A stretch of 64,000 nucleotides of DNA from a virus (taxonomy: Duplodnaviria > Caudoviricetes), in the IMG/VR virus record IMGVR_UViG_3300014208_000023, positions 160,001 to 224,000 of that record. One strand, written 5' to 3'. Below are positions 23,893-61,799 of this stretch, piece after piece (within the stretch, counting starts at the first letter, position 1; every line of letters begins with the position of its first letter). Made by a program: the position numbers and the translations under genes. Under the pieces are notes generated by a model. It searched no databases. It was given only the letters and a program-made list of their open reading frames with translations, and was not told the origin of the DNA.

Positions 23893-24900
23893 ATGAATAT
23901 GTTTAATAACAGAGGCGAAATGAATGCCTCTTCACTCAAAGATGCACTCGCGCAAATTAGCAAGTTCGCTTCACTAATGGATGACAACCTTCCATCAAAC
24001 GCTAACCTCTCGTCTTCAATTCCAGAAGGCCGCAGAGATGACCTAATCTCGCGCGCTATTTCTAGCACGGAAGGAAAACTCGTTCTAGCCCAGGCTATGG
24101 CGAATCCAATTCGTAAGAATCTTGACTACCACGGAATCGCGCGCAGAGCGCTCGTAGTTGATCCACTTCCCCAAGGAGCTCTCCCTGTTTATGATCGCGA
24201 TATCGACGTTACGGCCGTAGTTGTTTCTTCAAACGGTTCAGCTCCAGAGTCTCGCGTTTTCGGTGACCGTGTTACGGTTCCAGAATTCGAAATCATGAGC
24301 AACCCAACGGTTCGTATCGCGGAAGTCAAACGCCGTAGATTCAACGTAATCGACAGAGCTGTTCAGAAGGCTCGTCAAGAGATCATGGCGCAGGAAGACG
24401 CGAACGTTTTCGCGGCCCTTGATGCGGCTGCTTCAATTGAAAACACGGTTATGGACATCGCTGACGCAGGAATGCAGAAGCGTGACCTTCGCAACCTTAA
24501 AGTTCAGGTTGATCGTTGGGACCTCGTAACCAGCAAGTTCTTCATGAACATCAACGAGTACAACGATATCCTCGGTTGGGCTTCTGGTGGTGGTCAGGGC
24601 GTCGGCGGTGGTGAAGTTGATCCCGTTACGCAGCGCGAAATCCTCCAGACGGGCCTCTATGCTCACATCTGGGGAGCCGATATCCTCGTCAGCAAGATCG
24701 TTCCAGCGGGAACCGTCTATAGCTGTGCGGATCCAGAGTTCGTAGGCGTCATGCCAGTTCGCCAGGAATGTGAAGTTCTTCCTGCCGACGAGCCCCGCTT
24801 ACTCAAGCTCGGTTGGGTTGTTTCAGAGATCATCGGTCTCGCTATCGTCAATCCTCGCGGCTGCGCGAAGGGTACGAAGTCAACCCTCGTCGGAACCTGA
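23893..24900 (+). CDS. Major capsid protein (HK97 fold)
   Basis: LAQAMANPIRKNLDYHGIARRALVVDPLPQGALPVYDRD...KARQEIMAQEDANVF...GLYAHIWGADI...GLAIVNPRG; strong C-ending codon bias; AGGA SD; strong terminator. Confidence 0.85.
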   Translation: MNMFNNRGEMNASSLKDALAQISKFASLMDDNLPSNANLSSSIPEGRRDDLISRAISSTEGKLVLAQAMANPIRKNLDYHGIARRALVVDPLPQGALPVYDRDIDVTAVVVSSNGSAPESRVFGDRVTVPEFEIMSNPTVRIAEVKRRRFNVIDRAVQKARQEIMAQEDANVFAALDAAASIENTVMDIADAGMQKRDLRNLKVQVDRWDLVTSKFFMNINEYNDILGWASGGGQGVGGGEVDPVTQREILQTGLYAHIWGADILVSKIVPAGTVYSCADPEFVGVMPVRQECEVLPADEPRLLKLGWVVSEIIGLAIVNPRGCAKGTKSTLVGT

Positions 24901-47663: not shown

Positions 47664-48371
47664 TTAAGCATTAACATAATTTGGATTAACATTGGTTTCA
47701 CCAGTGCATCCAATTATTTGATAACCAAGCGGACTTAAAGCGGAATTAATTACTTCCTTAACTTTATTTGGTCCAACTTTAATTCTATCAGAATTATATC
47801 TAATAGTAACATTCTTACCTTCTACATCAAGACGTAACGACCCTTTAACTCCCTGAACGCTACTATCAAGCGCTGCAACTATATCGGCTGGCAAAGCATC
47901 ATCGGCCTGATTAGCATCTTTTGGAGCTGGTTTTGGTGCTGGCCTGGGAGAAGGCTTGGGAGAAGGCTTTTGATTTTTCTTGTCCAAAGGATCTGGCGGA
48001 AGGTCATCACATAAAGGGTCTCCTTGAAGACATTGCGCCAATTTATGAAAATTAGAGAAGTTTTTACGAAGCCTTGCAACTTTCTCTTCTGATTTTATAG
48101 ATGCAGTTACAATCACTCTAATGGCAGGATTAATTTTTTGAACCACAGCCCTTATTGCAGTCTCAATTTCTCCTCTGGATTTGCCGGCAGTAGTTAAGTC
48201 TTTGGCGCTAACATCAATTTTGACATCGCTAGCCGTGACCATAACGGTACTATCAGTGCTATTTGGAAGCAACTGATTTAAAGCCGCATCAACTGCAGCT
48301 TTAACGGTAGTAATTGGATCTTGAGAGATTTTATAGAATTTTGACGCTATCTTAAGTAAATCATTGACCAT
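47664..48371 (-). CDS. Hypothetical two-domain protein with an LLKIAxxF leader
   Basis: Start moved to ATG 48371 (MVNDLLKIASKFYKISQ); the longer ORF-track start runs through the upstream terminator. Confidence 0.6.
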   Translation of the reverse strand: MVNDLLKIASKFYKISQDPITTVKAAVDAALNQLLPNSTDSTVMVTASDVKIDVSAKDLTTAGKSRGEIETAIRAVVQKINPAIRVIVTASIKSEEKVARLRKNFSNFHKLAQCLQGDPLCDDLPPDPLDKKNQKPSPKPSPRPAPKPAPKDANQADDALPADIVAALDSSVQGVKGSLRLDVEGKNVTIRYNSDRIKVGPNKVKEVINSALSPLGYQIIGCTGETNVNPNYVNA

Positions 48372-48403
48372 ACGAAGATGCTTTAAAATGTATAGAAATA
48401 AAT

Positions 48404-48442
48404 AAAAAAAAAAAAAACGGAGAGCATTTTCATGCTCTCCGC
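48404..48442 (-). terminator. Intrinsic terminator after the decoration-like gene
   Basis: GCGGAGAGCAT-GAAA-ATGCTCTCCGT followed by a long U-tract. Confidence 0.88.
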
Positions 48443-48475
48443 TTTTCAAGCTAGGAGATAAGGCCTAGCTAGCTA

Positions 48476-49168
48476 TCAGGTAGCTGCGCCTGAGAACCAG
48501 TACGTCGCCATCGTGAAACGATTGGCTGATACCGATGCAACTGACCCTGAAGGTGAGTTGAGTGCAGCGACAAGATTGACTGGCGTATTGACTAGTGAGC
48601 CATTGCTTGAGAACTCGACGAGGCGAGCAACCGCAGTCGCCCCACCGCCGGCCGCGCCCTTGGTTGAACCGACTGGCGTAAGCAATCCGAGGACTGAATA
48701 CGTTAGTGGAGCATTTGGGGCTAGGGTTGCGTTTGAAGGAACTAGTCCGTCAGTCGCGGTATCACAAGCATCGAGGGTCGTAGCATAGAACCCTTGCTGA
48801 CCGTAAATGGTAACTTTACCAGATCCAGCAGCCGTGTGTGGTCCGAGTACCGCTCCGTTAATAACTTGCTGTCCAGTCTGTCCGCCAACAACCTGGCCGA
48901 ATAGAGTTCCGTAACCAGTCGTTCCTTCATCAGCAAGGAATAGTGGTTTCGTACCGGCGGCCATGGCAGTCGTTAGAACGGCGCGTTGTTTGCTGGTCGT
49001 ACCAACATATCCGTCTTCAACGTCAGCAGCTTCGAGATCGATGCTGGTGCCGATTGCAGTTGCGGTGAAGGTAACTAATTCGCCACCCTTGAGGGTAGCG
49101 GTTGGCGCGTCGAGACCGTCGAAGTCGCCGTAGGGCATTAAGCCTGATTGTTTTAATACTAGAGCCAT
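48476..49168 (-). CDS. Abundant head decoration/cement-like protein
   Basis: High-expression codon bias like MCP; ATLKGGELV...GSGKVTIYGQQGFYAT...LTYSVLGLLT; paralog of 55647..56348. Confidence 0.55.
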   Translation of the reverse strand: MALVLKQSGLMPYGDFDGLDAPTATLKGGELVTFTATAIGTSIDLEAADVEDGYVGTTSKQRAVLTTAMAAGTKPLFLADEGTTGYGTLFGQVVGGQTGQQVINGAVLGPHTAAGSGKVTIYGQQGFYATTLDACDTATDGLVPSNATLAPNAPLTYSVLGLLTPVGSTKGAAGGGATAVARLVEFSSNGSLVNTPVNLVAALNSPSGSVASVSANRFTMATYWFSGAAT

Positions 49169-49267: not shown

Positions 49268-50629
49268 TTATTTTCCCCATATACTATTGATAAATTTCAT
49301 AGTATCTTCGTCTGGCTTATGGCCGATAAGGTCCCAAATACTGTTCTCTTGCTTGGCTTTTTGGGCATTTTCAGTGGGTTTTACCTCTGTTGGTTTCACT
49401 TCCTCTTTTGTGGGTTCCGCTTTATTAGATTTTGCTTCTTCTACTGATTTATTTACGATTCCAGTCATAGTAGCTTTTAAATTATCTATTGCTATGGATA
49501 ATGATTTGAATGAATCTCTTACGTCTTGAATATCATTTGCCACGCCAGGGACCTGTAAATAACTAACTGCTTTAGCAAAGGATCCTTGCTTGGCTTTTGC
49601 TTCGAAAGTTTCTTTTATTTTTTCAAATGTTCCAAGCATATCAATGAATATTTTTGAATCATTTTTTACTTCCTGTATTTCATTTGGAGTAACTGGCTCA
49701 TTCTTAATAGATTTAGATTGAACAGTATTTAAAATTGTAATATAATCATTAGAGGCCTTAACTAATTTGCCCATAAAATCTTCTACGGTTTTGAAATACA
49801 CTTCTTCTTCTGGAACGGCTTTTTTTAAATCACCCATCTGATTTAAAAGATCTGCAGAATTTTCTTTAATGTTTTTTACTTTTGGACTGGTATTAAAAAT
49901 ATATCCCTCAATACCACCAATTGTTCCGCCAATTAATGCTCCAACGCCAGCACCAGCAAGCGATAGCGGCCCTCCCCAAGACGTAATAATAGCGCCAACG
50001 AGCGCTCCGCTCGCAGCCCCAGCCAATGCTCCTTCGCCAACTCCGCCAATATCACTAACTAGCTTGTCGCCCTTATTTCCACCGACAAAATCTACCGCCT
50101 TATGTGCGTAGTCTCCAAGATCGCCTAAAAAATCAGCTTTTTTTTTAAACCCATCTAGGCATTCGTCTGCCAATGCGCGAAGCTCTTCTTCGTCTGCATT
50201 ATCCATATCGTTACCAATACGAATTAGTTCCATCGCCAAATCTTTTTCGGCGTCTTTTAAGAACATATCGGAGCTGCCAGATGGTGCCTTGGAAAGAATC
50301 TTGTTAATGATTATGTTTTGACGCTCGTTTATGTTTTCAACCAAAGCATTAATCTTATCATAAGATGGAGCAACAACTACCGCATTTGGATGAGCATACT
50401 CCGCTATATTGTTCTCATATTTAATATAGCTTTCTGGCTTAACGCCATATAATGCTTCTATGGTGGAAATATCATCAGATCCAACACGAGGATACGTTTC
50501 ACTTCTATAATTTTTAAGCTCTTTACTCTCTTTTTCTTTTTTCTTTTCTTCAGCAGCAGTCTTAACTAGGCCTTTTTCTTCGGCAAGTTTAGCATAAGCC
50601 TCAAACATTTCACTTTTTCGTTCTCTCAT
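49268..50629 (-). CDS. Putative internal head/ejection protein with a glycine-zipper membrane segment
   Basis: GALAGAASGALVGAIITSWGGPLSLAGAGVGALIGGTIGG; motifs VKTAA and KKKAD. Confidence 0.5.
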   Translation of the reverse strand: MRERKSEMFEAYAKLAEEKGLVKTAAEEKKKEKESKELKNYRSETYPRVGSDDISTIEALYGVKPESYIKYENNIAEYAHPNAVVVAPSYDKINALVENINERQNIIINKILSKAPSGSSDMFLKDAEKDLAMELIRIGNDMDNADEEELRALADECLDGFKKKADFLGDLGDYAHKAVDFVGGNKGDKLVSDIGGVGEGALAGAASGALVGAIITSWGGPLSLAGAGVGALIGGTIGGIEGYIFNTSPKVKNIKENSADLLNQMGDLKKAVPEEEVYFKTVEDFMGKLVKASNDYITILNTVQSKSIKNEPVTPNEIQEVKNDSKIFIDMLGTFEKIKETFEAKAKQGSFAKAVSYLQVPGVANDIQDVRDSFKSLSIAIDNLKATMTGIVNKSVEEAKSNKAEPTKEEVKPTEVKPTENAQKAKQENSIWDLIGHKPDEDTMKFINSIWGK

Positions 50630-50655
50630 GGTTTCCTATATTATATGCTTGTATA

Positions 50656-51717
50656 TTAGTTTTTGGGCTTATCTTTAAGATATCCATTTATGATGTAGCT
50701 TACGATATCAATTTTTCTTTCAAAAGGTTTTGGAAAAGAGTATATATCTAATGATTCTGCCAATAGATTTCTGTCTTTAAACATTTTTTCTACTTGAATA
50801 AAGTTTTTAGAGCTAGTAATTTTATTTTCTTCATTTTTAAGATCTGGAAATGCCGATTCAATCCATTGAATTAGATAAGACCTAATATTTCCAATATTAC
50901 CGCGCTCTAACCATACTGTTTTCGGACCATTACTATTAAACTTATATAGATCTCTATCTACTGACGGAGATACCGTAAGATCATAAATTGGCTGGCGACC
51001 CATTGGAGCAGAGCTTGCCTCGCCATCATCTTTTTTTGGATCAGTAGTTATACCTATAGCTCCTCGTGCTGCCCCAGCAGCAGTGGTGAGCCCAATGCCG
51101 GCTATGGCGGTAGTAATTGCAAATGGAATAATTTTCCTGAATAGTTTAGACAATATTCCGCGTGATGTTCCGGCAGCCATTCCTAGAACGCCAGACCGTT
51201 TAATCATAGACGTAATGCTAGAGGCACCAGTAGATGGCGGAAGTTTGTCTTGAGAAGGATTATTTTTGGCCTTATCGTAGGCTTCTTGTAATTTTTCCTC
51301 ATCAACAGTATTGCTTACGTGCTGCGATAAAGCATCATCAGTAGCCTTCTCTATTTTAGACTGCAACTCTTCTTTAGTTGGCTTGGCTGCAGATGGATGT
51401 ATAGTATCTCTAATTATTTCCCATACGGAATTTTTTAAAGATTCCCAGATGCCAGCCCAATCAAATCCAAGCGCACCGGCAACTTCATAAGCAATTCCCA
51501 TCCAAGGAAATCCGAGCCTCATAAGTAGTGGTCCTCCCAAAAATGCCGCAAGACCAGCAAATGGGCGCTCTTTTATTTCATCCCATTTTTTTCCAGCATA
51601 TTCGGTTATTCCAGATAATATATTGTCAAAAGTGCTACCGCCTTCAGCCAAAACAATCATTGGAGATTGTTCCTGATAAAGCTTGTTAATATATAAGGTT
51701 GCTGCTAGATAAGTCAT
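50656..51717 (-). CDS. Putative internal head/ejection protein with hydrophobic segments
   Basis: PFAGLAAFLGGPLLM..., IIPFAITTAIAGIGLTTAAG. Confidence 0.45.
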   Translation of the reverse strand: MTYLAATLYINKLYQEQSPMIVLAEGGSTFDNILSGITEYAGKKWDEIKERPFAGLAAFLGGPLLMRLGFPWMGIAYEVAGALGFDWAGIWESLKNSVWEIIRDTIHPSAAKPTKEELQSKIEKATDDALSQHVSNTVDEEKLQEAYDKAKNNPSQDKLPPSTGASSITSMIKRSGVLGMAAGTSRGILSKLFRKIIPFAITTAIAGIGLTTAAGAARGAIGITTDPKKDDGEASSAPMGRQPIYDLTVSPSVDRDLYKFNSNGPKTVWLERGNIGNIRSYLIQWIESAFPDLKNEENKITSSKNFIQVEKMFKDRNLLAESLDIYSFPKPFERKIDIVSYIINGYLKDKPKN

Positions 51718-51719
51718 TA

Positions 51720-52850
51720 TTACAGCGGAGAGCTGGCTCCTCCAGTTGATTGGTGTAGCGCCGCCAACTTGCTAGCAGCGCTATTAAAGTTTAATTTATA
51801 TGATGTTGCCATTTGAAACTGACTGCTTAATGATTCGTTTGTTGCAAACATTGGTACGGTTCGCAATATACCTATAAAATTTCCTACGGCCACCATCATA
51901 GATGCAAGTCCAGAGGCAATTTGAGACAGTTCAGAATATGTATATGCATCATTTGATGGGTGACTTGGAATCCCTGGGGCATTTATTTTTGTTGCTGGGT
52001 TCGTAGGCATAGTTATTTCTTGATCTGGAATTGCGCTATTAAATGTGTTTTTTATATTGTTAGCAATTTCAATGCCAGTATCATTTGGCTCACACGCAAA
52101 TCCAGTTTTTTCTGGAGATTTATAAGTCAGTCTTTTTAAACGCAATTGAAGATTATTCATACTAGAAGTTGCGGAATCTAAAGCTCTCTCTATGGTTCCT
52201 CCGCTATTCTCATATTTTTTATACATTTGCTCAATTTGGACCGCTCGTTTATAGATATCAACAAAATCTATATTAATGCCGTCAAAAATTTGAATTGAGG
52301 CTGATTGCCCAGTAGATGGCTGCTGACCCCGACCTGCAGCTGGCTGTCCTGGCTGTCCTGGCTGTCCAGCCGCTTGCTGTCCTGGCTGTCCTGGCTGTCC
52401 TGGCTGTCCTGGCTGTCCTGGCTGTCCTGCTGTGGCCGCTTGTTGCACCGGTTTTGGAGGGAAAATATCCAGTTTTGTATTGAGAACTTTATTTTGGTTT
52501 GCCTCTTCAATAAGCGCCCCTATTGATTCTGATACTGCTGGGTTAGACGCAAAACGATTTCTTAAATCTGCTAAAAATAAAGCGAGACCATCAGGATCAA
52601 ACTGCCCATTTTCAACTATACTATTTCCATCCACCGCAGCATTATTATTTTTTGCCCAATTTTTAAAATCATTTAATGATTCCATATCTTGTAATGTTGG
52701 ATTTTTTGATGCCTTAAGTGGAGATATTTGATTCTTTAGATTACTAATTATTTGAAGGGCAGCGCCGGTTAATTCTGCTGGAGGACTAGCTTGTGCTATG
52801 ACAAGGAGTTTTTCAAGTAAGTCTAAATCATTATATATAAAAGAATTCAT
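51720..52850 (-). CDS. Hypothetical internal head protein with a GQP linker
   Basis: Two helical domains joined by (GQP)n. Confidence 0.5.
   Translation of the reverse strand: MNSFIYNDLDLLEKLLVIAQASPPAELTGAALQIISNLKNQISPLKASKNPTLQDMESLNDFKNWAKNNNAAVDGNSIVENGQFDPDGLALFLADLRNRFASNPAVSESIGALIEEANQNKVLNTKLDIFPPKPVQQAATAGQPGQPGQPGQPGQPGQQAAGQPGQPGQPAAGRGQQPSTGQSASIQIFDGINIDFVDIYKRAVQIEQMYKKYENSGGTIERALDSATSSMNNLQLRLKRLTYKSPEKTGFACEPNDTGIEIANNIKNTFNSAIPDQEITMPTNPATKINAPGIPSHPSNDAYTYSELSQIASGLASMMVAVGNFIGILRTVPMFATNESLSSQFQMATSYKLNFNSAASKLAALHQSTGGASSPL
52341..52427 (-). repeat. 9-bp tandem repeat (GGACAGCCA, Gly-Gln-Pro) x8
   Basis: 5 + 3 perfect copies separated by GQQAA codons. Confidence 0.9.
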
Positions 52851-53885
52851 TTATTTGTCCGCAAATGGATTTGGTGGCACAATGGCTGGCTTATTGCTTG
52901 GTAACATTGGCCCAGCAGGGGCAGACGTATTAGTTACCTTTATAGTTCTTTTTTTAATTCCTTGCTCAATAGAAGTTAAAAATGCATAGAGCTGATCATC
53001 ATCTTCAACATCTACATTAAGTTTATCTTTATTTTTTGTAATATATTCTATAAGAAGTTCTTTATTTGATAAATAAAATAGATTTATTGGTTCAGGGAAT
53101 ACTTTTGAGATAAGCTGAATATTATTCATATTTGGAAATTGTTTCTTTAGTTCCTCTTGACCCCTACCTTTTTCTGAATATCCTGCTGGAAGCTCGCCGG
53201 TATTTCTTATGCCAGACATAGTTCCATCCATAGTTTGTAATAACGGAGGGATGCTGTCATGAATTTTAATTAGAATTTCCGTTGCTTGTTCGGCAGCAAT
53301 ATTAACTTGCTTATGATCGGCAATTATTTTTTTAAGAGAACTTATATCATTTTCTCCAAATTGTAATTGTGTTCCAAATTTAGAAGATAAAGGAATCATT
53401 ACATTAGCCAAACTCACTATACCGTTTAGAGCAATAGTTGTATTATTGCCCCATTGACCGTCAGCTTTACCCGGTTTCATTGTTTTATAGTTTGCTGGAG
53501 CTCCTGCCTTATCAATACTTTTAAGAATATTCGATAAAGAAGTTGGTGCTGGACCACTTCCCAAATGTCTGCTGAATATTTTTCCAGTGTGGTGACGGTC
53601 TAATGATTCAATTATTGTTGGATCCGCAGTGCCATCAAGCATTTGTTTTAAGCCTGGTTTTGCTCCAGGCCTATTTTTAGCAATGTCTTCAATTGAAAAC
53701 GCACTTCTTATTCGAAGCATTTCAGTTTGCATGCGCGTTACTTGATCATTATTGGCTGGACGCATTCCTTTTGATGGAACTGTGGCCGCAGCCGGTGTGC
53801 CTGGCGTAGCTGCTGGTGCAGTAGTAGCTGCTGGATTGGCGGGCTCTGTTCCTGGATAAAATTTTGATTGTGCTTTTTTATACAT
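52851..53885 (-). CDS. Hypothetical internal head protein with a peptidoglycan-binding-like motif
   Basis: MYKKAQ leader; KADGQWGNNTTIAL resembles the DG.wG..T..Al signature. Confidence 0.45.
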   Translation of the reverse strand: MYKKAQSKFYPGTEPANPAATTAPAATPGTPAAATVPSKGMRPANNDQVTRMQTEMLRIRSAFSIEDIAKNRPGAKPGLKQMLDGTADPTIIESLDRHHTGKIFSRHLGSGPAPTSLSNILKSIDKAGAPANYKTMKPGKADGQWGNNTTIALNGIVSLANVMIPLSSKFGTQLQFGENDISSLKKIIADHKQVNIAAEQATEILIKIHDSIPPLLQTMDGTMSGIRNTGELPAGYSEKGRGQEELKKQFPNMNNIQLISKVFPEPINLFYLSNKELLIEYITKNKDKLNVDVEDDDQLYAFLTSIEQGIKKRTIKVTNTSAPAGPMLPSNKPAIVPPNPFADK

Positions 53886-55614
53886 TTGGAAGCTTTGCTT
53901 TTTTAAATGCTGTAACTGGCAAAATTATTTCGTTATTCAATCTATCGGCATATATTTTTACATTTGATGCTTTGTCTGCCGATGATGGTAACTCACTAAA
54001 CTCTTTTAGTTCGCTTGCCAAATGTTTTTTTGTATCTTCTAGCCAAGATATCATTTTAGGTCCCTCAGCTAATTTTTGAGCTTTAATTGCAGACTCATAC
54101 TTGTTGATTAAATTTTCAGTTTCTTTATATTTTTTCAATAAAGAATCAACTTCGGCGCCACCAGCAGCATTTAATTTTTCTTTAGATATTCTATCAATTT
54201 CACTGTCAATTTCTTTAAGGCTAGAATCAATTATTTCGGAGGCTTTTCTACAAAGCTCCATAAAATTGTTTGCAGCAAGCTCTACATCAGCATGACCACT
54301 TAAAAATCTAGTGCCATACATAGATTGTTCTTTATGTTTTTTTGCAGCGTCCCAAATTTTAAATGTTGCTTTATGAGCAGCATTAAGATTACGTTTTAAA
54401 GATACTATTGCAATATAATTTTCTGCAGATGGAGATTTTTTAAATTCATCTTTAGCATTAATTCCTTTTAGGATATTTGGAAGAATGCCCTTCAAATCAT
54501 CAACATTTTTATATTCTGCTGCTGACAAATCTCCTTTAACATCCTCGCATTCCAAAAGAACCTGCTGTCCTGCTTTTTGAAAATCCTGTATTGAATAGAA
54601 TCTATCAAATAACATATAGCCACCGACAGATCCAGCTATCGCTGCGGCTACCCCAGCAATAACTAATGGATTTGCAAGAAAACTAAGCAACCCTCCGCTA
54701 GCTGGTGCCGTTGCTGCTGCTGGAGCCGCAATTGCTCCAGGTATTGCCGCTGGAGCCGTAGCTGCAGCACCAGCAGCGGTTCCTGGAGCAACTAATTCTG
54801 GAACTACTCCTGGAAGAGCGCTTGGTACTGGTGGCCATGGGGCTGCGGTTTTAACGTTTAAAGTTTTTTTTAGCATACTTACTATTTCAGCCTTCTTTGT
54901 TGAAGGCGTGCTATTAACCATTTGCATTATTGAATCAATATATGCATCCACATCTTCAATGCTATCGATTCTAAATTGTGGCCCAATAATGAATTGTTTA
55001 AGGACCGAGAATGCCGTTATACGCTGGCTCTCATCTGGATTATTGAAGTTTTCAACAATTCTTTTGGCCATATCGTGAAGTCTAACCATATATAGATATA
55101 CTGATGATTTCTTTTTGTCCGGAGAGTTAGCATCGCCCTTATTAGACACAATCTTATTATTTAAGGCATCTGCTAATGCTTGAAATTTTTGAGCAATAAT
55201 TATGTTTTTAATTGTGCCAGCTAATTGTGCGCTCTTGAGAACAACTTTTAGTATTTTCTTATGTTGAGAAGGACCAGTCTCAACATCTCCGTTGTTATCT
55301 TGCGCAGGAGCCATTTCCACATCACCATCTGGGTGGGCGGATTCTAGGAGCTCATCTCCTGTTTCCGAATGCGCCCGATAGAGTAAATTTGCATCGACTT
55401 CGGCTTTTTTATATGTTCCAAAGCGATTTTCAAGATTTTCTGCCTGCTGAACATAACCTGCCGTACGCAGCTTTGACGCTAACGTAAGTAGCTTTTCAGT
55501 TAATGATAATTCGGCAGCTGGCTCCACAACTGGAGCTTCTGGAAGAATAACTGGATTCTCCTGAAGTTCAGCCATGATCTCTAGGTGCTTTAGGTCCTTC
55601 AAAGTAAAAGTCAT
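53878..55614 (-). CDS. Putative internal head/ejection protein with a TM segment
   Basis: Start moved to ATG 55614 (GAGGA SD; removes the overlap with the upstream gene); LLSFLANPLVIAGVAAAIAGSVGGYMLF; several K-x-A motifs. Confidence 0.5.
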   Translation of the reverse strand: MTFTLKDLKHLEIMAELQENPVILPEAPVVEPAAELSLTEKLLTLASKLRTAGYVQQAENLENRFGTYKKAEVDANLLYRAHSETGDELLESAHPDGDVEMAPAQDNNGDVETGPSQHKKILKVVLKSAQLAGTIKNIIIAQKFQALADALNNKIVSNKGDANSPDKKKSSVYLYMVRLHDMAKRIVENFNNPDESQRITAFSVLKQFIIGPQFRIDSIEDVDAYIDSIMQMVNSTPSTKKAEIVSMLKKTLNVKTAAPWPPVPSALPGVVPELVAPGTAAGAAATAPAAIPGAIAAPAAATAPASGGLLSFLANPLVIAGVAAAIAGSVGGYMLFDRFYSIQDFQKAGQQVLLECEDVKGDLSAAEYKNVDDLKGILPNILKGINAKDEFKKSPSAENYIAIVSLKRNLNAAHKATFKIWDAAKKHKEQSMYGTRFLSGHADVELAANNFMELCRKASEIIDSSLKEIDSEIDRISKEKLNAAGGAEVDSLLKKYKETENLINKYESAIKAQKLAEGPKMISWLEDTKKHLASELKEFSELPSSADKASNVKIYADRLNNEIILPVTAFKKAKLPNV

Positions 55615-55646: not shown

Positions 55647-56348
55647 TTATAGTAGCAGTGCTTGTAGCGTAGAATTTATAACTGAAGGAGGAGCAGTACA
55701 TATCGCAACTATTGGACTATTTGGAAGTATTTGTCTTGTAGTAAATAATCCATGCTCATTAAGAAACAAATTTGACATTACATTATATTGCTGATTGACT
55801 TCAAACTGATCTGTCTCAAAAAGCATTCTTTGAAACCAAATCGTAACCATCTGCGACCCAAATGTAGTGTCGTCGCCAATAACATTTGGTATCTGATAGG
55901 GATATCGCACTAGTGTTTTAATTGAGTCTGGAGTGCCTGTCCCGCCTAGATCGAAATTAAGCAGGGTTCCTGCTGGAAATACTATTACTCCATTTCTAGG
56001 AATTAGCTGAACGGGAACTGGATTAGATATAAAGTAGTTACCATCAACGTTTGGGTTGTCTAGTTCGGCCTTGATGTCCATTATAGTAATGAGCTGTCCC
56101 GCCCCATTTACCATGACGTTGGCTGGGTCTGGAGTAACTATACGTTCTTCGTCCCAGCTAACTGCGCTAAATGCTTTGGTTTTAACATCGTCAGCTATGC
56201 CGAAGAAGCTCATTCCGTTGCTTGGAGTCCCCATGATTTGGGAACCGAGAACGGTAAGTGTCATCGCGGTGCCTGATTCAAATGTGGCAGAAGGATCGAC
56301 TGGGACCTGCCATGGAACGGAATTCCCCGCCTCTAAAATCCTAAGCAT
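55647..56348 (-). CDS. Head decoration-like protein, paralog of 48476..49168
   Basis: ATFESG...GSQMVTIWFQRMLFET...LNEHGLFTT. Confidence 0.5.
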   Translation of the reverse strand: MLRILEAGNSVPWQVPVDPSATFESGTAMTLTVLGSQIMGTPSNGMSFFGIADDVKTKAFSAVSWDEERIVTPDPANVMVNGAGQLITIMDIKAELDNPNVDGNYFISNPVPVQLIPRNGVIVFPAGTLLNFDLGGTGTPDSIKTLVRYPYQIPNVIGDDTTFGSQMVTIWFQRMLFETDQFEVNQQYNVMSNLFLNEHGLFTTRQILPNSPIVAICTAPPSVINSTLQALLL

Positions 56349-56590: not shown

Positions 56591-56638
56591 ATAAAATGAA
56601 GGAACCTTCCCGTTTTAAGCAGGAAGGCTTCATTTTAT
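56591..56638 (-). terminator. Hairpin/terminator after 56659..57387
   Basis: ATAAAATGAAG-CCTTCC...GGAAGG-TTC-CTTCATTTTAT interrupted stem. Confidence 0.65.
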
Positions 56639-56658: not shown

Positions 56659-57387
56659 TTAGAAGGATCGTAAAGTGGGCTCGCCACCCGTATTACTTTC
56701 TTCTAATGCATCTACCTTATGTAGTCTTGGACATTCTGCAGCCTGAGCCATATCTGACTCAAGCATATGATCATAACCGCATTCAGGACATATGTCCCAA
56801 AAACCATCTTCTTGTCTTTTTTCTCTTACTCCTGATTCCGGTCCGTGGTAATTGTCGTCAGTTGGTAGTTTTCCTAATCCAAACCACGACGCCACCTCAT
56901 CACCAAATCCTTGGCCCTTATTATTCATAACGCCAGATTTTGGGCCATCATCAGCCATATTACATTCGCCACAATCACTTTTTGGAGCATTAAATACCCA
57001 GCCAATATTTTCTAAATTATCTATCTGTTTCTCTGGAGTAAGAACTTCGGAGGTTACGTCTTTAATAACATCAATAAGCGTTGATGGTTTCTTCTTGGTA
57101 GTAGATTTAGATTTAGATTTCGTTTTGGTTTTTGATTTTGTTTTAGATTTCTTTTTGGCCTTTTTCTTTGCCTCTTTAACCATTGCAAACTGACCAGAAG
57201 CAATAGTCTCCATAAATTGAGTAATTATTTCTGCTTCTTCTGGCAGATTCATTGACTCGAATATTTCTGCCGAATCAGCCAGAGATTGAAGGGCTACTTC
57301 AATCCCGACCTCTTCGTTTTTAGCCGGTAGCGCTTCTAATACTGAAGCTTCAATTTCATTTGCAGAATGACTTTTTTTGAAAAACAT
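56659..57387 (-). CDS. Hypothetical head-module protein with a Lys/Ser/Thr basic tract and a C-terminal CxxC
   Basis: KKKAKKKSKTKSKTKTKSKSKSTTKKK; CPECGYDH. Confidence 0.6.
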   Translation of the reverse strand: MFFKKSHSANEIEASVLEALPAKNEEVGIEVALQSLADSAEIFESMNLPEEAEIITQFMETIASGQFAMVKEAKKKAKKKSKTKSKTKTKSKSKSTTKKKPSTLIDVIKDVTSEVLTPEKQIDNLENIGWVFNAPKSDCGECNMADDGPKSGVMNNKGQGFGDEVASWFGLGKLPTDDNYHGPESGVREKRQEDGFWDICPECGYDHMLESDMAQAAECPRLHKVDALEESNTGGEPTLRSF

Positions 57388-57395
57388 TTTAAACC

Positions 57396-57875
57396 TTAAT
57401 TACTAGTTAATTTACCTAATTTATGATAGCCATCAAATAAAAGAGCTATAATATAATCTTTATGAACTTCTGTTACCTTACCATCGCCAAGTTTTGGATG
57501 AACTATTAAATCTCCAATATTATATGAGTGGTTTGGATTATATTTTTTGAAATCAGAGACTTTCTCATTACTAACGGCAATCTCCCAAAGCCTTCTGAGG
57601 TCTTGCTTTGGTTTTTGCTCTGGTTCGTCAATTAGATTTTTTTGTGGTGGGTGTGGATTTCTAATGACTTCTGCAACTCTTCGCGCGGCTTGCTCTGCCG
57701 TGTGATGTCGCTCAACTGTTTTTCCTATAACAACGGTATAGCTCATTATTGATCCATCAAGATTTTTATTTTCCCAAATTCTAATTCCTGAATCGTGCTT
57801 AACAGAACGCCCGGATTGTAATTCCTTAACAATCCAGGCGATAGTTTCTTTATCTGAAAGATCAGATGCTGTTAC
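57396..57875 (-). CDS. -1 frame extension of 57872..58432, ending in a Tudor/SH3-like domain
   Basis: Frame is open for 43 codons upstream of ATG 57746, back to the slippery site; C-terminal YNIGDLIVHPKLGDGKVTEV. May also be expressed alone from ATG 57746. Confidence 0.6.
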   Translation of the reverse strand, partial: VTASDLSDKETIAWIVKELQSGRSVKHDSGIRIWENKNLDGSIMSYTVVIGKTVERHHTAEQAARRVAEVIRNPHPPQKNLIDEPEQKPKQDLRRLWEIAVSNEKVSDFKKYNPNHSYNIGDLIVHPKLGDGKVTEVHKDYIIALLFDGYHKLGKLTSN

Positions 57876-57881
57876 TTTTTT
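57852..57881 (-). promoter_or_regulatory. Candidate programmed -1 frameshift signal
   Basis: A AAA AAG (57881-57875) directly before TAA; 7-nt spacer; stem ATCTGA-TCTT-TCAGAT (57867-57852). Confidence 0.6.
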
Positions 57882-58432
57882 TTTGAGGACTTATCGGCTG
57901 GCTTCTTGCCTTTTTTACCCTTTTGAGCGGCGCGCATTTTTTCCATGCGCTCTTTCATTGACATCTTCTTGCCTGGCTTCTTATCTTTCTTTGAGGAGCC
58001 GCTTGAAGAACTTGATGAAGAGCCACTTGAAGAAGAGCTTGATGATCCTGACTTTCCTGAATCTGGGCTTTTCTTTTTCGCAGCAGCCGTCTTTAGAATG
58101 CTATCGGCTAGAACAATCGTGGCCGCAGCTAGTCTATCCATGCCTTGGTCTTCAAGTTCAGTCGAAATCTCTAGAAGAAGTCCGGCGGTGTCTTCAAGAG
58201 AAACTGAAGCTTCTTTCTTTTCTCCTTCTTTTTCATGGCATTCACAGCCACAATCGCCATCACAATCCTCTTCGCATTTACAGTCCGAAGCAAGTTTTTT
58301 CATTTCCTCTTCGACTTCGCTTACTTCCTCCTTGCCTTCTCGTGAGAAGGCAAGTTTTTCCATACTTTTCTGGTGTTCTGCGGATTCGGCAATTTTAACC
58401 ATTTCCGCAGCAATATCAAAGTGATACTTCAT
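57872..58432 (-). CDS. Internal head/core-like protein with repeated K-x-A motifs and a Ser/Lys-rich tail
   Basis: Directly after the protease gene; VKIAE, EKLAF, KKLAS, KKEAS, LKTAA. Confidence 0.6.
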   Translation of the reverse strand: MKYHFDIAAEMVKIAESAEHQKSMEKLAFSREGKEEVSEVEEEMKKLASDCKCEEDCDGDCGCECHEKEGEKKEASVSLEDTAGLLLEISTELEDQGMDRLAAATIVLADSILKTAAAKKKSPDSGKSGSSSSSSSGSSSSSSSGSSKKDKKPGKKMSMKERMEKMRAAQKGKKGKKPADKSSKKK

Positions 58433-58433
58433 A

Positions 58434-61400
58434 TTAGTACTTTCTGCCTGAGAAGGCTAGGTCAAGCTCGGCCTGTAGATCATCACCACCTGAGTGAGAG
58501 TCACCGGTCTCGCGGATTCCGACCTGGGGAACTAGTCCTGCGGTCTTTACGGAGCCGACTGGCATTTTGGCAATTACTCTTTTGTAACTATCAAAACCTT
58601 CGTCGTTCCACTTCATTGATTCATCAACTTGGCGACCGATCGCAGCGCGTTCGTTCGTGATGAGTCCTCTGCGAGCCATTTCATTGGCAAGCTCGTATGA
58701 GCGAGCAAGCTTGATTTTGTAGGTTCCCATTTCCTCTTCAAGCTTGGCCTTTTCAGCCGCCGCCGTTAGAAGCTTAGCAAACTCCGCTCCACCATCAGCT
58801 TGACCGTAGAAGTCACGCCAGTATTTGACAACTTCTGAATCTAGTCCTTCAGCGACCAACTTATCAAGGTCTTCTTTACGGACAGTTCCAGCGACAATCA
58901 TCTTGTTTAGACGCTCGGCCTCTTTCTTAACCTTTGGGGCCGCTCTGGCTACTTCAAGCATACGCTTCTGAACTTCTGGCTTCGTTTCAACTAGGCCTAG
59001 GCTATCAGAAGGCTTGACATCAAGTTGCGTCTGGCCATCGGCAAGCTTGTTAGCATCTGCCATAACTGGATTGAACTTGATTGATTCAGCAGCGACTGAA
59101 TCCGTGATGTGCTCTGCAAGTTTCGTGCGATAAGCCGCGCGGCCTTCTTTTGTCGTTAGATCCATAGCTGCCTTTTCTACTACTTTTGCATTTGGTGGAA
59201 CTGGTTGGCCTGGAGCAAGCTCGACCACTAATCCGCTGGTTCCTCCGTCATTTACCATTCCGAAATCATCAGCATCTTCGTGCTTTGGTGATCTCTGTGT
59301 TTCTGGCTGCATATCTGGAACTGGATTTTTTTCCGTAGCTGGCATGTCTTCATAATCTGAATCGCCATGAAGATCTTGATCTAGATCTGGAAGAATGTCA
59401 TCATCACCAACATCGGTCATGCCTTCATCTAGTGTCTCTGGAGAGAACTCGCCATCTGCCTCAAAGTCATCATCACCCATGTTAAAATCTCCATCTCCAA
59501 CGTTATTTTCGTCTTCATCAGTTGCGTCCTGAGCGCTCTTTAGACGCGCAGTAAGGTTTTCAACGCCACTTGCATATTTGGCGTATGAGCGAAGAACGCC
59601 CTCGGCATCATTAAGTGATAGCTCGGCCTCTTCAAAAGCCGTTCCAATCATTCCTCTGATGCTTGCATTCTTAACTGTCTCTGAATCAGCCATATCGCTG
59701 ATTAGTTTGAGTTCTGAATAGTGAGCCTTTAGCTCGGAAAGTGATTTTTTAGCGGCAGATACTAGCATTCTTTCAAGTTTGCGACGCATCTCGGCAGCTG
59801 GAGTTAGAAGTGCGGCAGTTGCCTGTGGAAGAGCCTTAATGCCCTCTTCAAGCTCGCCCATTTGTGGTCCGGCTCCTCCAATTTCACGAACAGCCTCAAG
59901 AAGCTCGGCGGCACTATCACGAGTTTTCTCGGCCAGTTTTTCTGCAACTTCCTGTGGATCGCCACTACCACCAGCATCAGCTTCCGCATCTGGAGTAGCA
60001 GCAGGAGCCGCGCCCATATCGGCTACTGGAGCAGCAGCGGCTGGAGCTGGAGCAGCTGCTCCTGGCATTTCCTGAGCGCGCTTATATACTGAAGCGGCTT
60101 TCTCAAGACCAACTTCGCGAATCTTCTCTAGCATTTTGCCACCGAATTCTTTGGTAGCAATCATGTCGAATAGCTGGTCTGACTGACCGGCAGAAATTTC
60201 ATTAACTGAAGCGGTGAAAATAAGCTTGTCACCTTTCTCATCCTTCGCGAATACCTGCCAACCTGAATTGGCTAGATCGTCACGGCCATTTGATCCGGCT
60301 TTACGGATGAAACGAGCCTTAAGTGAAGCTCTTGAAAGCTTCTCTTTAATGGCAAGATCATCGCCATAAAGTCCATCAACATCGCCAACGCCTGGAAATG
60401 GTTTTGCCCCAACCATTTGTTTGTCACCTTTTTCACGAACCTGATCGCGAAGAGGGTCTATTTCATACTTAACTTTTCCTGGGGTTGGCTCATTAACGCC
60501 ACCACCACCGAGCCAGTAACCTTTTTTATCAAGGTTTTTCTTGGCGTTTTCAAGGGCTTCTTTACGACGAGCCGAACGCTCGCCTAATGGACGAACTTCG
60601 GACTTAATCTTATCGTCGCCTTCGCCACCATAATCTTTCGTCTGGAGCATTTGCTTGTCTTCTCCATCACGAGCTTTTTCGTTAAGAGGGTCGGCTGGAT
60701 ATTTTACTTTTCCTGGCGTTGGTTCATTAACGCCACCGCCACCTAGGTAGTATCCCTTTTTATCCATTGAGTTGTCCCGATCAGTCATAATATCCTCTTG
60801 TTTTTTGTTAAGGTCTTCCAAAGTCTGTTCCATTGATGATTTCAATATTTTGAGTTCTGTAAATAATGCTTCAATATCGGCATATACCGGAGCAATATTT
60901 TCATTTGATTTTAAATTTTCTTCTTTTGGTAGATCTTTAAGCTCTACCAGATCATTACTGATCTCCGTCAAATTTTGCTGCATTTGAGCAATCTTCTCTT
61001 GAAGATTTGAAGAATACGTGCTATTTTTAATATTTTGAGCGGACGCAAAAATAGTTCTAATGCGAGCACTCGGGTCAGCAGGATTAACTACAATTGACAA
61101 TTCAATTGGCTTGAGCTGACAATTTATTTCACCGTAACCCGTTTTATTTTTCATATGATCACAAAAATCACGCTCCGAACGAGCTACGCGGCCACAAGAA
61201 TCTTCTGCGCAGATTGCTTTTTCAACAATTGTTCCCATGCTTACTGATGTAGAGTATCCAGTTGAGACCTTACGAGCTAGTTCTGGGTATGAAACTTTAT
61301 CTAAAGCACATAGCGCAATTACTCGTTTGCTCTTAAAATCGTAATAAGTATCAAGAATAACACCACGAATAGCATCTACCGAGTTTGATTTATGATCAAC

Positions 61401-61799
61401 ACATAGTGGCTTGCCAATCCATTCCTTATGAGCCTTAACTAATTCTGACTCTGGAAAAATATCTCCATTGTTATTTTTGTATGGCCGAATATTTGAATCG
61501 CTGCATTTCCAACGAAGACTTTCTGGACCATCTCCGCCAACTTCCCAGCTAGCCGTTACTGGCTGTCCATCACGACCTGTTTTTAGGGAGCCATCATCAT
61601 TATAAAGACAAGCCTCCGCGGCCGTCATCATGAATGTGCTGAAATAAGTAAAATCATTTGCTTTTGGAGCTATTTTTTTGAGTTCTCCGGCAAACTTCTC
61701 AAATCTTTTGTTAATATCTTCATTGCTCAATACTGATTCGGCAGACTGAATTGAAGTTGGATTGAGAGCGAATGACTCGCCTTGTTTATGAAAACTCAT
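58434..61799 (-). CDS. Prohead maturation protease fused to a scaffold/core domain
   Basis: KPLCVDH (His), IRGVILD, ELARKV..G....VSMG, ELSIVVNPADPSARI (Ser) match the HK97/assemblin protease fold; long acidic and coiled C-terminal region. Confidence 0.8.
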   Translation of the reverse strand: MSFHKQGESFALNPTSIQSAESVLSNEDINKRFEKFAGELKKIAPKANDFTYFSTFMMTAAEACLYNDDGSLKTGRDGQPVTASWEVGGDGPESLRWKCSDSNIRPYKNNNGDIFPESELVKAHKEWIGKPLCVDHKSNSVDAIRGVILDTYYDFKSKRVIALCALDKVSYPELARKVSTGYSTSVSMGTIVEKAICAEDSCGRVARSERDFCDHMKNKTGYGEINCQLKPIELSIVVNPADPSARIRTIFASAQNIKNSTYSSNLQEKIAQMQQNLTEISNDLVELKDLPKEENLKSNENIAPVYADIEALFTELKILKSSMEQTLEDLNKKQEDIMTDRDNSMDKKGYYLGGGGVNEPTPGKVKYPADPLNEKARDGEDKQMLQTKDYGGEGDDKIKSEVRPLGERSARRKEALENAKKNLDKKGYWLGGGGVNEPTPGKVKYEIDPLRDQVREKGDKQMVGAKPFPGVGDVDGLYGDDLAIKEKLSRASLKARFIRKAGSNGRDDLANSGWQVFAKDEKGDKLIFTASVNEISAGQSDQLFDMIATKEFGGKMLEKIREVGLEKAASVYKRAQEMPGAAAPAPAAAAPVADMGAAPAATPDAEADAGGSGDPQEVAEKLAEKTRDSAAELLEAVREIGGAGPQMGELEEGIKALPQATAALLTPAAEMRRKLERMLVSAAKKSLSELKAHYSELKLISDMADSETVKNASIRGMIGTAFEEAELSLNDAEGVLRSYAKYASGVENLTARLKSAQDATDEDENNVGDGDFNMGDDDFEADGEFSPETLDEGMTDVGDDDILPDLDQDLHGDSDYEDMPATEKNPVPDMQPETQRSPKHEDADDFGMVNDGGTSGLVVELAPGQPVPPNAKVVEKAAMDLTTKEGRAAYRTKLAEHITDSVAAESIKFNPVMADANKLADGQTQLDVKPSDSLGLVETKPEVQKRMLEVARAAPKVKKEAERLNKMIVAGTVRKEDLDKLVAEGLDSEVVKYWRDFYGQADGGAEFAKLLTAAAEKAKLEEEMGTYKIKLARSYELANEMARRGLITNERAAIGRQVDESMKWNDEGFDSYKRVIAKMPVGSVKTAGLVPQVGIRETGDSHSGGDDLQAELDLAFSGRKY

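Follow-up and report, generated by a model that had tools for sequence, protein, structure and literature searches.

This study concerned five consecutive genes, here called A to E, at positions 49268-55614 of a 64,000-nucleotide stretch of virus DNA (the window), which corresponds to bases 160001-224000 of the IMG/VR record IMGVR_UViG_3300014208_000023, a sequence of 428,320 bp with direct terminal repeats. An earlier note on this DNA, made from the letters alone, had proposed that the five proteins are packaged, matured by a protease, and ejected to build a channel across the host envelope. All five genes were real and lay tightly packed on the minus strand, and E began at 55614, as that note had claimed; this start corresponds to the conserved Met30 of a 607-aa open reading frame (ORF) and has an AGGA ribosome-binding site 7 nt upstream. 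The motifs and hydrophobic stretches that the note had quoted were present where it had placed them, as judged from the sequence and from Kyte-Doolittle (KD) hydrophobicity. Inspection of the five N-termini identified no Sec-like signal peptide, in agreement with the note, and a Pfam scan of the five proteins returned no domain. The genes were as follows.

49268-50629, minus strand: A, 453 aa, with a leader, an N-terminal module (N-module, to approximately residue 157), a K-K-x-A site, a glycine-zipper hairpin, and a four-helix bundle
50656-51717, minus strand: B, 353 aa, with one to three hydrophobic helices in the family and two conserved h-x-K-x-A sites (h, a hydrophobic residue)
51720-52850, minus strand: C, soluble, low-complexity (PGQ repeats in this phage), and helical, with a leader ending in K-x-A or K-x-G before Q (here LLVIA/Q, the slash marking the presumed cut)
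52851-53885, minus strand: D, soluble and helical, with a Pro/Ala-rich N-terminus, an I-x-K-x-A leader (here MYKKA), and a helical bundle core
53878-55614, minus strand: E, 578 aa, with a leader and an 'LY..AHP..VE' N-module, an Ala/Pro-rich linker, one transmembrane (TM) helix in this phage, and a helical C-terminus

We mapped the tripeptide K-x-A on family alignments of 110 (A), 58 (B), 27 (C), 47 (D), and 52 (E) sequences. The results revealed conserved positional peaks in A, B, C, and E; the control tripeptides K-x-S, E-x-A, K-x-L, A-x-K, K-x-E, and K-x-G formed almost no positional peaks. The site logo at all peaks consisted of L, I, M, or F at P5, Lys at P3, Ala at P1, and Gln, Ser, Gly, or Ala at P1'. 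The N-terminal sites were located at residues 13-25 in A, at a median of residue 29 in B (51 of 58 members), at approximately residues 20-25 in C and 13-17 in D, and at residues 21 and 36 in E. As a sequence pattern, the leaders of the families end at approximately residues 12-36, depending on the family, in a motif common with the major capsid protein, in which it occurs at approximately residue 26. The capsid features in the window were as follows.

23893-24900, plus strand: major capsid protein, 53% identical to gp27 of Bacillus phage G, displaced from its ancestral place after the gene g230 (described below)
23956-23970, plus strand: N-terminal site I-S-K-F-A/S of the capsid protein, residues 22-26, seen in every listed relative

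In all listed relatives, the capsid site reads L-V-K-Y-A or I-A-K-F-A before Ala, Ser, Gln, Gly, or Glu, near residue 26. It is part of an N-terminal extension of 40 residues, which is missing from phage G gp27. Prohead proteases canonically shorten the capsid protein at its N-terminus. Because the motif ends the extension that this enzyme would be expected to remove, we infer that h-x-K-x-A is where the prohead protease cuts, and the leader together with the motif forms a candidate code for entry into the head and for the position of the cut.

We then considered what follows the leader in each protein. In A of this phage, the parts were as follows.

50555-50593, minus strand: leader 'AKLAEEKGLVKTA' with the motif K[IVL]AxEKGL[IV], ending in L-V-K-T-A and common with the leaders of the E family
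50135-50149, minus strand: internal site FKKKA/DF, residues 161-165, at the end of the N-module and followed by DFLG
49895-50047, minus strand: glycine-zipper hairpin, residues 195-245, KD 1.55-1.59
49424-49891, minus strand: C-terminal long four-helix bundle, residues 247-402, predicted mostly with pLDDT above 90

The N-module of the A family ends at a conserved Cys, with K-K-x-A behind it, and in most members a classical TM helix begins 0-4 residues later. The KD of this helix was 2.0-2.9 in most relatives, and in nearly all of the 110-member family a K-x-A site stood just upstream of the hydrophobic segment, be it a TM helix or a glycine zipper. In the subclade of this phage, a glycine-zipper hairpin approximately 30 residues behind the site takes the place of the classical helix. 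The GxxxG/A pattern was plain in the sequence of this phage's A, which also gave a sub-threshold match to the YiaD glycine zipper. When the relatives were compared with glycine-zipper profiles (PF13441, PF13488, and PF05433), Gly-zipper_YMGG scored 23.2 bits against a cut-off of 28.9, and the matches of Gly-zipper_Omp and Glycine zipper 2TM were also below cut-off; DUF6861 exceeded its cut-off in one member (34.8 vs 28). In Pfam, PHROG, and NCBIfam scans of the five proteins, the only matches were those of the A glycine zipper to phrog_342, the endolysin family phrog_10341, YiaD, and SseD (E 0.0095); they were driven by composition and sub-threshold, and we rejected them as homology. A model built from the 110-sequence alignment (pLDDT 72.7) contained a confident four-helix bundle that was kept in all members, and the N-module was far more conserved than this bundle. 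Fold searches with the model (PDB with Foldseek, BFVD, and a wide VIA search) returned generic four-helix bundles, the best with a Z score of 11.3, which is in the noise range for helical models, as well as one homolog from an uncultured phage. Longer forms in which the A module is fused to an enzyme were sought and none was found, which is weak evidence.

E is a paralog of A. The two families aligned in hhalign with a probability of 97.9% (E 4e-13), and with a probability of 96% when independent alignments were used. Their N-modules share an invariant Tyr and Ala-His and a nearly invariant Pro and Glu, and among the fetched loci the leader motif K[IV]AxEKGL[IV] was confined to these two families. 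A profile of the N-module matched 1,748 representative proteins, 504 of them below 1e-30; all those checked were unnamed and metagenomic, and the module was N-terminal in all but one of the 150 listed matches. K-x-A occurs several times in the E family (at residues 21, 36, 70, and 83). The following features were located in this phage.

55402-55416, minus strand: Y-K-x-A site TYKKA, its K and A invariant in a 10-sequence alignment and present in 47 of 52 members
54844-54858, minus strand: NVKTA site, residues 282-286 in the numbering of the 607-aa ORF, followed by APW and lying ahead of the Ala/Pro-rich linker and the TM helix
54607-54696, minus strand: lineage-specific hydrophobic helix, residues 336-365, KD 2.1

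The NVKTA site was not conserved across the family, and few E proteins have a TM helix (6 of 48 representatives of the family; 11 of 95 sequences of an independent set), this phage being among the carriers.

Hydrophobic helices were found in 51 of the 54 B representatives, and the sites and hydrophobic regions of B alternate along the protein. An Atlas search with B returned nothing informative.

51646-51660, minus strand: site 1, MIVLA/EGG, residues 20-24, with the family form L-x-K-T-A/Q in 51 of 58 members (median residue 29); the probable end of an N-terminal leader
51445-51561, minus strand: first hydrophobic region, residues 53-91, KD approximately 1.3
51193-51207, minus strand: site 2, MIKRS/G, residues 171-175, followed by GVLG, with the family form h-h-K-x-A (38 of 58 members, median residue 181); the last hydrophobic helix follows after 12 residues
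51049-51159, minus strand: second hydrophobic region, residues 187-223, KD approximately 1.3

To place these segments in context, we determined hydrophobicity as KD means over 19 residues and in Wimley-White windows. A segment with KD of at least 1.5 was present in 78 of the 583 ORFs of the genome (13%), so that the hydrophobic stretches of the cassette are unremarkable within the genome, and the density of K-x-A in A to E was 0-11 per 1000 residues against 5.3 for the proteome. The pattern within this genome is not statistically striking; the case rests on conservation across the relatives. Segments with KD of at least 1.6 occurred in 43 of 55 A, 51 of 54 B, 6 of 48 E, 2 of 41 D, and 1 of 23 C representatives, and the remaining A representatives, those below 1.6, were the glycine-zipper forms. 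The earlier note had placed membrane-type segments in three of the five proteins; this holds for A, B, and E of this phage, but as a family trait such segments belong only to A and B. Its observation that a motif stands just ahead of these segments was borne out for the A and B families, in which h-x-K-x-[AS] lay no more than 25 residues upstream of a hydrophobic segment in 66 of 130 cases, compared with 8 of 81 in the rest of the proteome; the family members are related to each other, so that counts and p-values overstate their independence. The maximum KD of the T7 ejection proteins gp14-16 and of P22 gp7, gp20, and gp16 was 0.8-1.44, to which the Gly/Ala-rich segments of A and B in this phage are comparable in kind and strength, a point in favor of ejection.

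The position of the A helix raises the alternative that A and B are cleavable membrane tethers or nucleators. According to this explanation, they would anchor the growing prohead to the inner membrane of the producer cell, with their conserved N-terminal parts bound to the portal or core of the prohead, until cutting by the protease frees the prohead and leaves the membrane fragments unpackaged. Several features agree with it: in most A members, only 0-4 residues separate the site from a classical TM helix; this helix is far more hydrophobic than the segments of proven ejection proteins; its Lys-rich N-flank and neutral C-flank fit an N-in, C-out membrane protein; and the N-module is far more conserved than the C-terminal bundle. 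T4 proheads likewise assemble on a membrane. For phage SPN3US, results have been taken by their authors as supporting the view that detachment of the prohead from the inner membrane requires protease cleavage (PMC10052503). The protease, however, works inside the prohead and could hardly reach a site that directly borders the membrane. That all members retain the confidently folded four-helix bundle of A suggests that it does more than anchor, and in the subclade of this phage the anchor would be a modestly hydrophobic glycine zipper, similar to the tail of P22 gp7. Nor does tethering account for the leaders and sites in C and D, which are soluble, or in the E members that have no TM helix. 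We regard the tether as a serious rival, about equal in how it accounts for the anatomy, although less likely than the cargo reading set out below.

No membrane segment characterizes the C and D families. In one subclade, the two are a single 426-aa protein (L012:4485-5765 and L013:12077-13357) with the D motif in its N-terminal half and a C-like C-terminal half, which indicates that the D and C families are fused or split by lineage. Members at the C position had no Pfam domain in a pooled scan. The earlier note had described a peptidoglycan-binding-like motif in D, and its block is indeed present and (nearly) invariant.

53427-53468, minus strand: G..DGxWGxxTxxAL, the only (nearly) invariant block of the D family, with DGQWGNNT at residues 142-149 in this phage

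This block resembles the core of PG_binding_1 (PF01471), but the profile tests of that resemblance failed: none of 48 D members reached E 0.05 with PG_binding_1, PF01471 did not match D when run through all six frames of the genome (E of up to 10), and the D profile found no peptidoglycan-binding chain among PDB sequences. In an AlphaFold model of D (344 residues, pLDDT 72), the motif starts a 23-residue helix within a long helical bundle, and the Foldseek and VIA matches of this model included no peptidoglycan-binding domain, although a 60-residue domain inside the model could escape such a search. A wall-binding function of D is thus unsupported, though still conceivable. The only PG_binding_1-like stretch of the genome (17.9 bits, below cut-off), which the six-frame search did detect, was located elsewhere, in a 190-aa protein encoded on the minus strand (L100:1297-1869, approximately G000:C1:75866-76438); this protein also contains a 'LYKFAVAFEKASQ' stretch near residue 40 of the listed ORF, whose start may be further downstream. 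This protein is a candidate for wall-binding head cargo.

These searches bear on whether A to E could be envelope proteins of the infected cell unrelated to the virion, either a lysis or lysis-control set with holin-like A and B and a wall-binding D, or a superinfection exclusion system, housed in the head operon. At the equivalent place, from its protease gene to its decoration/capsid genes, phage G has the endolysin gp22/23 and two small TM-bearing proteins, gp24 and gp25; D carries a wall-binding-like motif; and the SLT (PF01464), phage lysozyme, and Amidase_2 profiles, which would mark lysis genes, had no match anywhere in the 428 kb of this genome. A and B, at 453 and 353 aa, are nevertheless far larger than holins, and no muralytic or peptidoglycan-binding profile matched the cassette or the scanned members of its relatives, so that the five genes do not match the pattern of a holin-endolysin cassette. 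They also show no homology to phage G gp20-25, and they share leaders and K-x-A sites with the capsid protein and are enclosed by capsid-accessory genes in essentially all relatives spanning the region. An envelope function of this type is very improbable.

Judging from their surroundings, the five genes belong to the head module of a megaphage with a contractile tail. A sheath gene at 8023-10824 of the window agrees with the contractile tail that the earlier note had assumed, and the phage is related to phage G not only through its capsid protein but also through its protease domain, which is 33% identical to gp19. On the minus strand, the large terminase (TerL) and portal genes lie just past the end of the window and are followed by several small genes, the gene of a protease-scaffold fusion, three small Lys-rich genes, and then g233-E-D-C-B-A-g230, after which come a cluster of sugar-modifying genes and a collagen-like fibre gene. 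A to E accordingly lie downstream of the terminase, portal, and protease-scaffold genes and between cement-like flanks, with the capsid gene next in the relatives.

58434-61799, minus strand: prohead protease (N-terminal approximately 260 aa, phage G gp19-like) with a long scaffold-like region, 1121 aa

The scaffold-like region comprises approximately 860 residues, is acidic and coiled, and contains 16 K-x-A sites. The fusion is the presumed processing enzyme of the cassette proteins, and its arrangement recalls that of herpesvirus assemblin-scaffold and P2 gpO. The small proteins encoded between it and g233 (56659-58432, minus strand, and L001:8295-9664 in a relative) are rich in Lys and Ser and of low complexity, with SKSK-type tails in relatives and K-x-A densities that reach 32 per 1000 residues; possible roles are DNA condensation and a scaffold-like part in the core.

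A location between the protease-scaffold and capsid genes is also the classical position of scaffold genes, which is in agreement with a purely structural role. A to E would then serve only assembly, forming with the protease-scaffold protein an inner core that sets the size of the very large capsid, being cut at K-x-A and expelled before or during packaging, and their hydrophobic and Gly/Ala-rich stretches would mediate self-association rather than contact membranes. The several K-x-A sites in E and the 16 in the scaffold fusion, as well as the predicted helical, low-complexity, and fast-evolving nature of the proteins, point in the same direction. Helices of TM grade whose position is conserved over hundreds of divergent members would, however, be unusual for scaffolds; the protease protein already carries a dedicated scaffold region of approximately 860 residues, and the A bundle and the C-terminal domain of B look like stable folded products rather than disposable linkers. 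We regard an assembly-only function as rather improbable.

The two genes that flank the cassette and the putative boundaries of the unit were as follows.

56603-56629, minus strand: terminator-like hairpin with a 10-bp stem and a T-rich tail (a consensus match only), in the 310-nt gap before g233
55647-56348, minus strand: g233, first gene of the unit, encoding a conserved beta-rich capsid-accessory (cement/decoration-like) protein, 35-58% identical in relatives
48476-49168, minus strand: g230, last gene of the unit, encoding a conserved Gly/Thr-rich capsid-accessory protein, located directly before the capsid gene in relatives
48412-48447, minus strand: strong intrinsic-terminator-like hairpin in the sequence right behind g230, with a 16-bp stem and a T run

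Neighboring genes from g233 to g230 overlap or lie 0-99 nt apart, and because of this tight spacing and the hairpins at both ends the seven genes look like one unit, of which the hairpin at 56603-56629 is the probable upstream boundary. A 261-aa ORF lies beyond g230 (47664-48449, minus strand; K-x-A 23 per 1000 residues); its listed TTG start overlaps the hairpin at 48412-48447, so its true start is probably further downstream.

Locus searches with A or B as single proteins returned nothing, and synteny emerged only when g233 and, afterwards, the A alignment served as query. The g233 search yielded 15 syntenic IMG/VR loci and the A-family search 80 more (of 145 confirmed matches), on contigs of up to 481 kb; the cassette is thus conserved in at least 80 related contigs. 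The order g233-E-D-C-B-A-g230 was kept in essentially all loci spanning the region, and in most of them g230 is directly followed by the gene of a capsid protein of approximately 337 aa that is 72-83% identical to that of this phage (for example, L010:17497-18513). In this phage, the capsid gene is on the opposite strand approximately 24 kb from g230, and the cluster of sugar-modifying and collagen-fibre genes separates the two, which is a clade-specific rearrangement of the head operon. The five proteins diverge fast: compared with a 406-kb relative, A was 33%, B 31%, and C 28% identical and D was undetectable by BLAST, whereas g233 and g230 were 54-57% and the capsid protein 81% identical. 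Such divergence is typical of internal or ejected proteins. Many relatives contain additional ORFs of 250-300 aa between g233 and E, such as the following.

L070:3876-4676: homing endonuclease insertion between g233 and E
L042:3694-4476: homing endonuclease insertion between g233 and E

These ORFs encode GIY-YIG (13 members) or LAGLIDADG (2 members) homing endonucleases and were therefore rejected as members of the cassette; the g233/E junction is a hot spot for mobile endonucleases.

The earlier note had placed the five genes between two decoration-like genes. The conserved synteny upholds capsid-accessory genes on both sides, but the likeness of g233 to cement proteins is a lead only: its nearest language-model (Atlas) clusters carry Phage_cement, Phage_cement_2, and Phage_cement_3 on 11-16% of their members (score 0.93), and neither g233 nor g230 had a sequence match in Pfam, PHROG, or the PDB. 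The position of g230 before the capsid gene parallels that of the decoration gene gp26 of phage G. The two flanking proteins are weakly similar to each other (hhalign 33%), and g233 has no K-x-A site. We rejected either of them as the capsid protein, which is encoded at 23893-24900 on the other strand.

Because the leaders of A to E end in the same site as the capsid extension, the five proteins most likely enter the prohead and are trimmed there. Their common leaders and site, their place between the protease-scaffold and capsid genes, and precedents in other phages make this step probable. The reading that we prefer, and hold tentatively at somewhat below an even chance, is that A to E are cargo of the prohead, trimmed by its protease, and that A and B act on the host membrane after ejection. 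The cassette would be co-transcribed with the two capsid-accessory genes and, ancestrally, with the major capsid gene. The leader and the A/E N-module would load the proteins into the prohead, where the protease-scaffold protein encoded upstream would trim the leaders, and cutting at the second sites of A and B would free fragments that begin with a membrane-inserting stretch. These fragments would stay in the filled head, exit with the DNA through the contracted tail, insert into the cytoplasmic membrane of the host, and help or hold open the entry of DNA, with C and D acting as soluble helical partners.

Several observations weigh against prohead cargo of this type. The helix of most A relatives, at KD 2.0-2.9, exceeds any segment of the T7 and P22 ejection proteins, and because such a classical helix probably inserts into the membrane of the producer cell on synthesis, packaging in soluble form would be awkward. 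The Lys-rich flank before the helix is partly expected from the positive-inside rule. Membrane segments are missing from C, D, and most members of E. In a contractile tail, the tube, hub, and tape measure normally do the crossing of the envelope, so that there is no need for a conduit carried in the head. Sequence and profile searches, and fold searches with A and D, linked the proteins to none of the characterized ejection, pilot, inner-body, or internal proteins, the members of the clade other than phage G are uncultured, and the putative specificity of the protease was deduced from sequence.

A more specific version of the prohead cargo reading, which we consider doubtful, is that A and E are cleavage-primed membrane-insertion proteins in the head, whose primed fragments would travel through the tail tube together with B and form a port in the cytoplasmic membrane. 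Their layout, in which the prohead protease would cut directly before a Gly/Ala-rich or fully hydrophobic peptide that is followed by a long helical bundle, recalls how class I viral fusion proteins are primed, and also the hydrophobic translocators of type III secretion. If true, this would be the first head-borne 'ejectosome' of a myophage, with a code (h-x-K-x-A) readable from sequence and a port for a 428-kb genome.

Relatives of phage G among the megaphages occur widely in metagenomes, but phage G is the only one in culture. The cassette is a universal feature of this clade and has no name, although its N-module alone has 1,748 representatives, and it bears on the assembly of very large heads and on the movement of approximately half a megabase of DNA across an envelope. 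If the code holds, the head cargo of uncultured megaphages would be predictable from sequence alone, and A and B would represent, for the first time, either membrane-active cargo in a contractile-tailed phage or a defined membrane tether in prohead assembly. Both outcomes can be tested with recombinant proteins, and no cultured phage is needed.

Among known systems, the earlier note had invoked T7 gp14-16 and the P22 pilot proteins, but kinship with them was not borne out. No sequence relationship was found, and structure prediction followed by Foldseek, performed on the A and D models, returned only generic helical bundles and no relative among ejection proteins; searches of these two models against the PDB and BFVD for the T7 tunnel fold gave the same result, which is based on these two proteins. 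A PHROG scan for the gp14, gp15, and gp16 families gave no relevant match for B to E and, for A, only the gp16-like phrog_342 (E 4e-5, 22.8 bits), a weak match driven by composition. In searches of 50,697 phage records at the DNA and protein (tblastn) levels, A, E, and the whole 6.4-kb stretch had no match, and the profiles of A to E showed no relation to the head region of phage G (gp4-gp39).

The resemblance to T7 is one of kind. T7 gp14-16 are, similar to A to E, large and without signal peptides; they are packaged in the head and are Gly/Ala-rich and moderately hydrophobic (maximum KD 1.3-1.4). After ejection, they span the envelope. T7 differs in being short-tailed and needing a tail extension, its gp16 bears a lytic transglycosylase, a module that a search with SLT (PF01464) did not find in this genome, and no real homology was found. 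To our knowledge, T7 has no prohead protease, so its core proteins are not cut by one. In P22, three consecutive genes encode the packaged and ejected gp7, gp20, and gp16; gp7 loses a 20-residue N-terminal leader according to its record annotation, and its glycine-zipper-like tail is much like that of A. P22 is, however, a podophage, its gp7 is cut by the host protease OpdA (per the record), its ejection genes follow the head-completion genes rather than lying between the protease and capsid genes, and the proteins are not homologous.

Other systems trim head cargo with their own protease. In T4, an N-terminal capsid-targeting sequence directs IPI-III and Alt to the prohead core and is removed by the protease, and the cargo enters the cell along with the DNA. 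Herpesvirus assemblin, whose fold is shared by phage prohead proteases of the type found here, is also fused to its scaffold and cuts after Ala (Ala/Ser) in a short hydrophobic-x-Ala motif, but it belongs to a eukaryotic virus, its site has no Lys at P3, and its substrate is the scaffold itself rather than membrane-type cargo; the specificity proposed here is putative. P1 DarA loses approximately 70-90 residues to the prohead protease Pro and is co-ejected with DNA (PMC12810830). The T4 internal proteins and DarA differ from A to E in being soluble anti-restriction or modifying cargo without membrane segments, with other cleavage motifs and no homology.

The closest parallel in overall design is provided by SPN3US and phiKZ, which are contractile-tailed giant phages that, as here, encode many non-shell proteins with their head genes (PMC10052503). 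In SPN3US, the protease gp245 takes N-terminal propeptides, 20 to 254 residues long, off head proteins at A-x-E, a short motif also found in the capsid protein, and many of these proteins are believed to enter the cell with the DNA (PMC10052503). In those phages, the cut follows Glu in A-x-E, whereas here it presumably follows Ala in h-x-K-x-A; there is no sequence homology, and the protease of this phage is phage-G/HK97-like and fused to a scaffold. We found no mention in that account of a TM or glycine-zipper segment right behind the site (PMC10052503). Head cargo with cleavable leaders is thus an already known kind of system. What is new here is a set of five families, a candidate code (Lys at P3, Ala at P1), and a putative site that regularly stands directly before membrane segments in a contractile-tailed phage.

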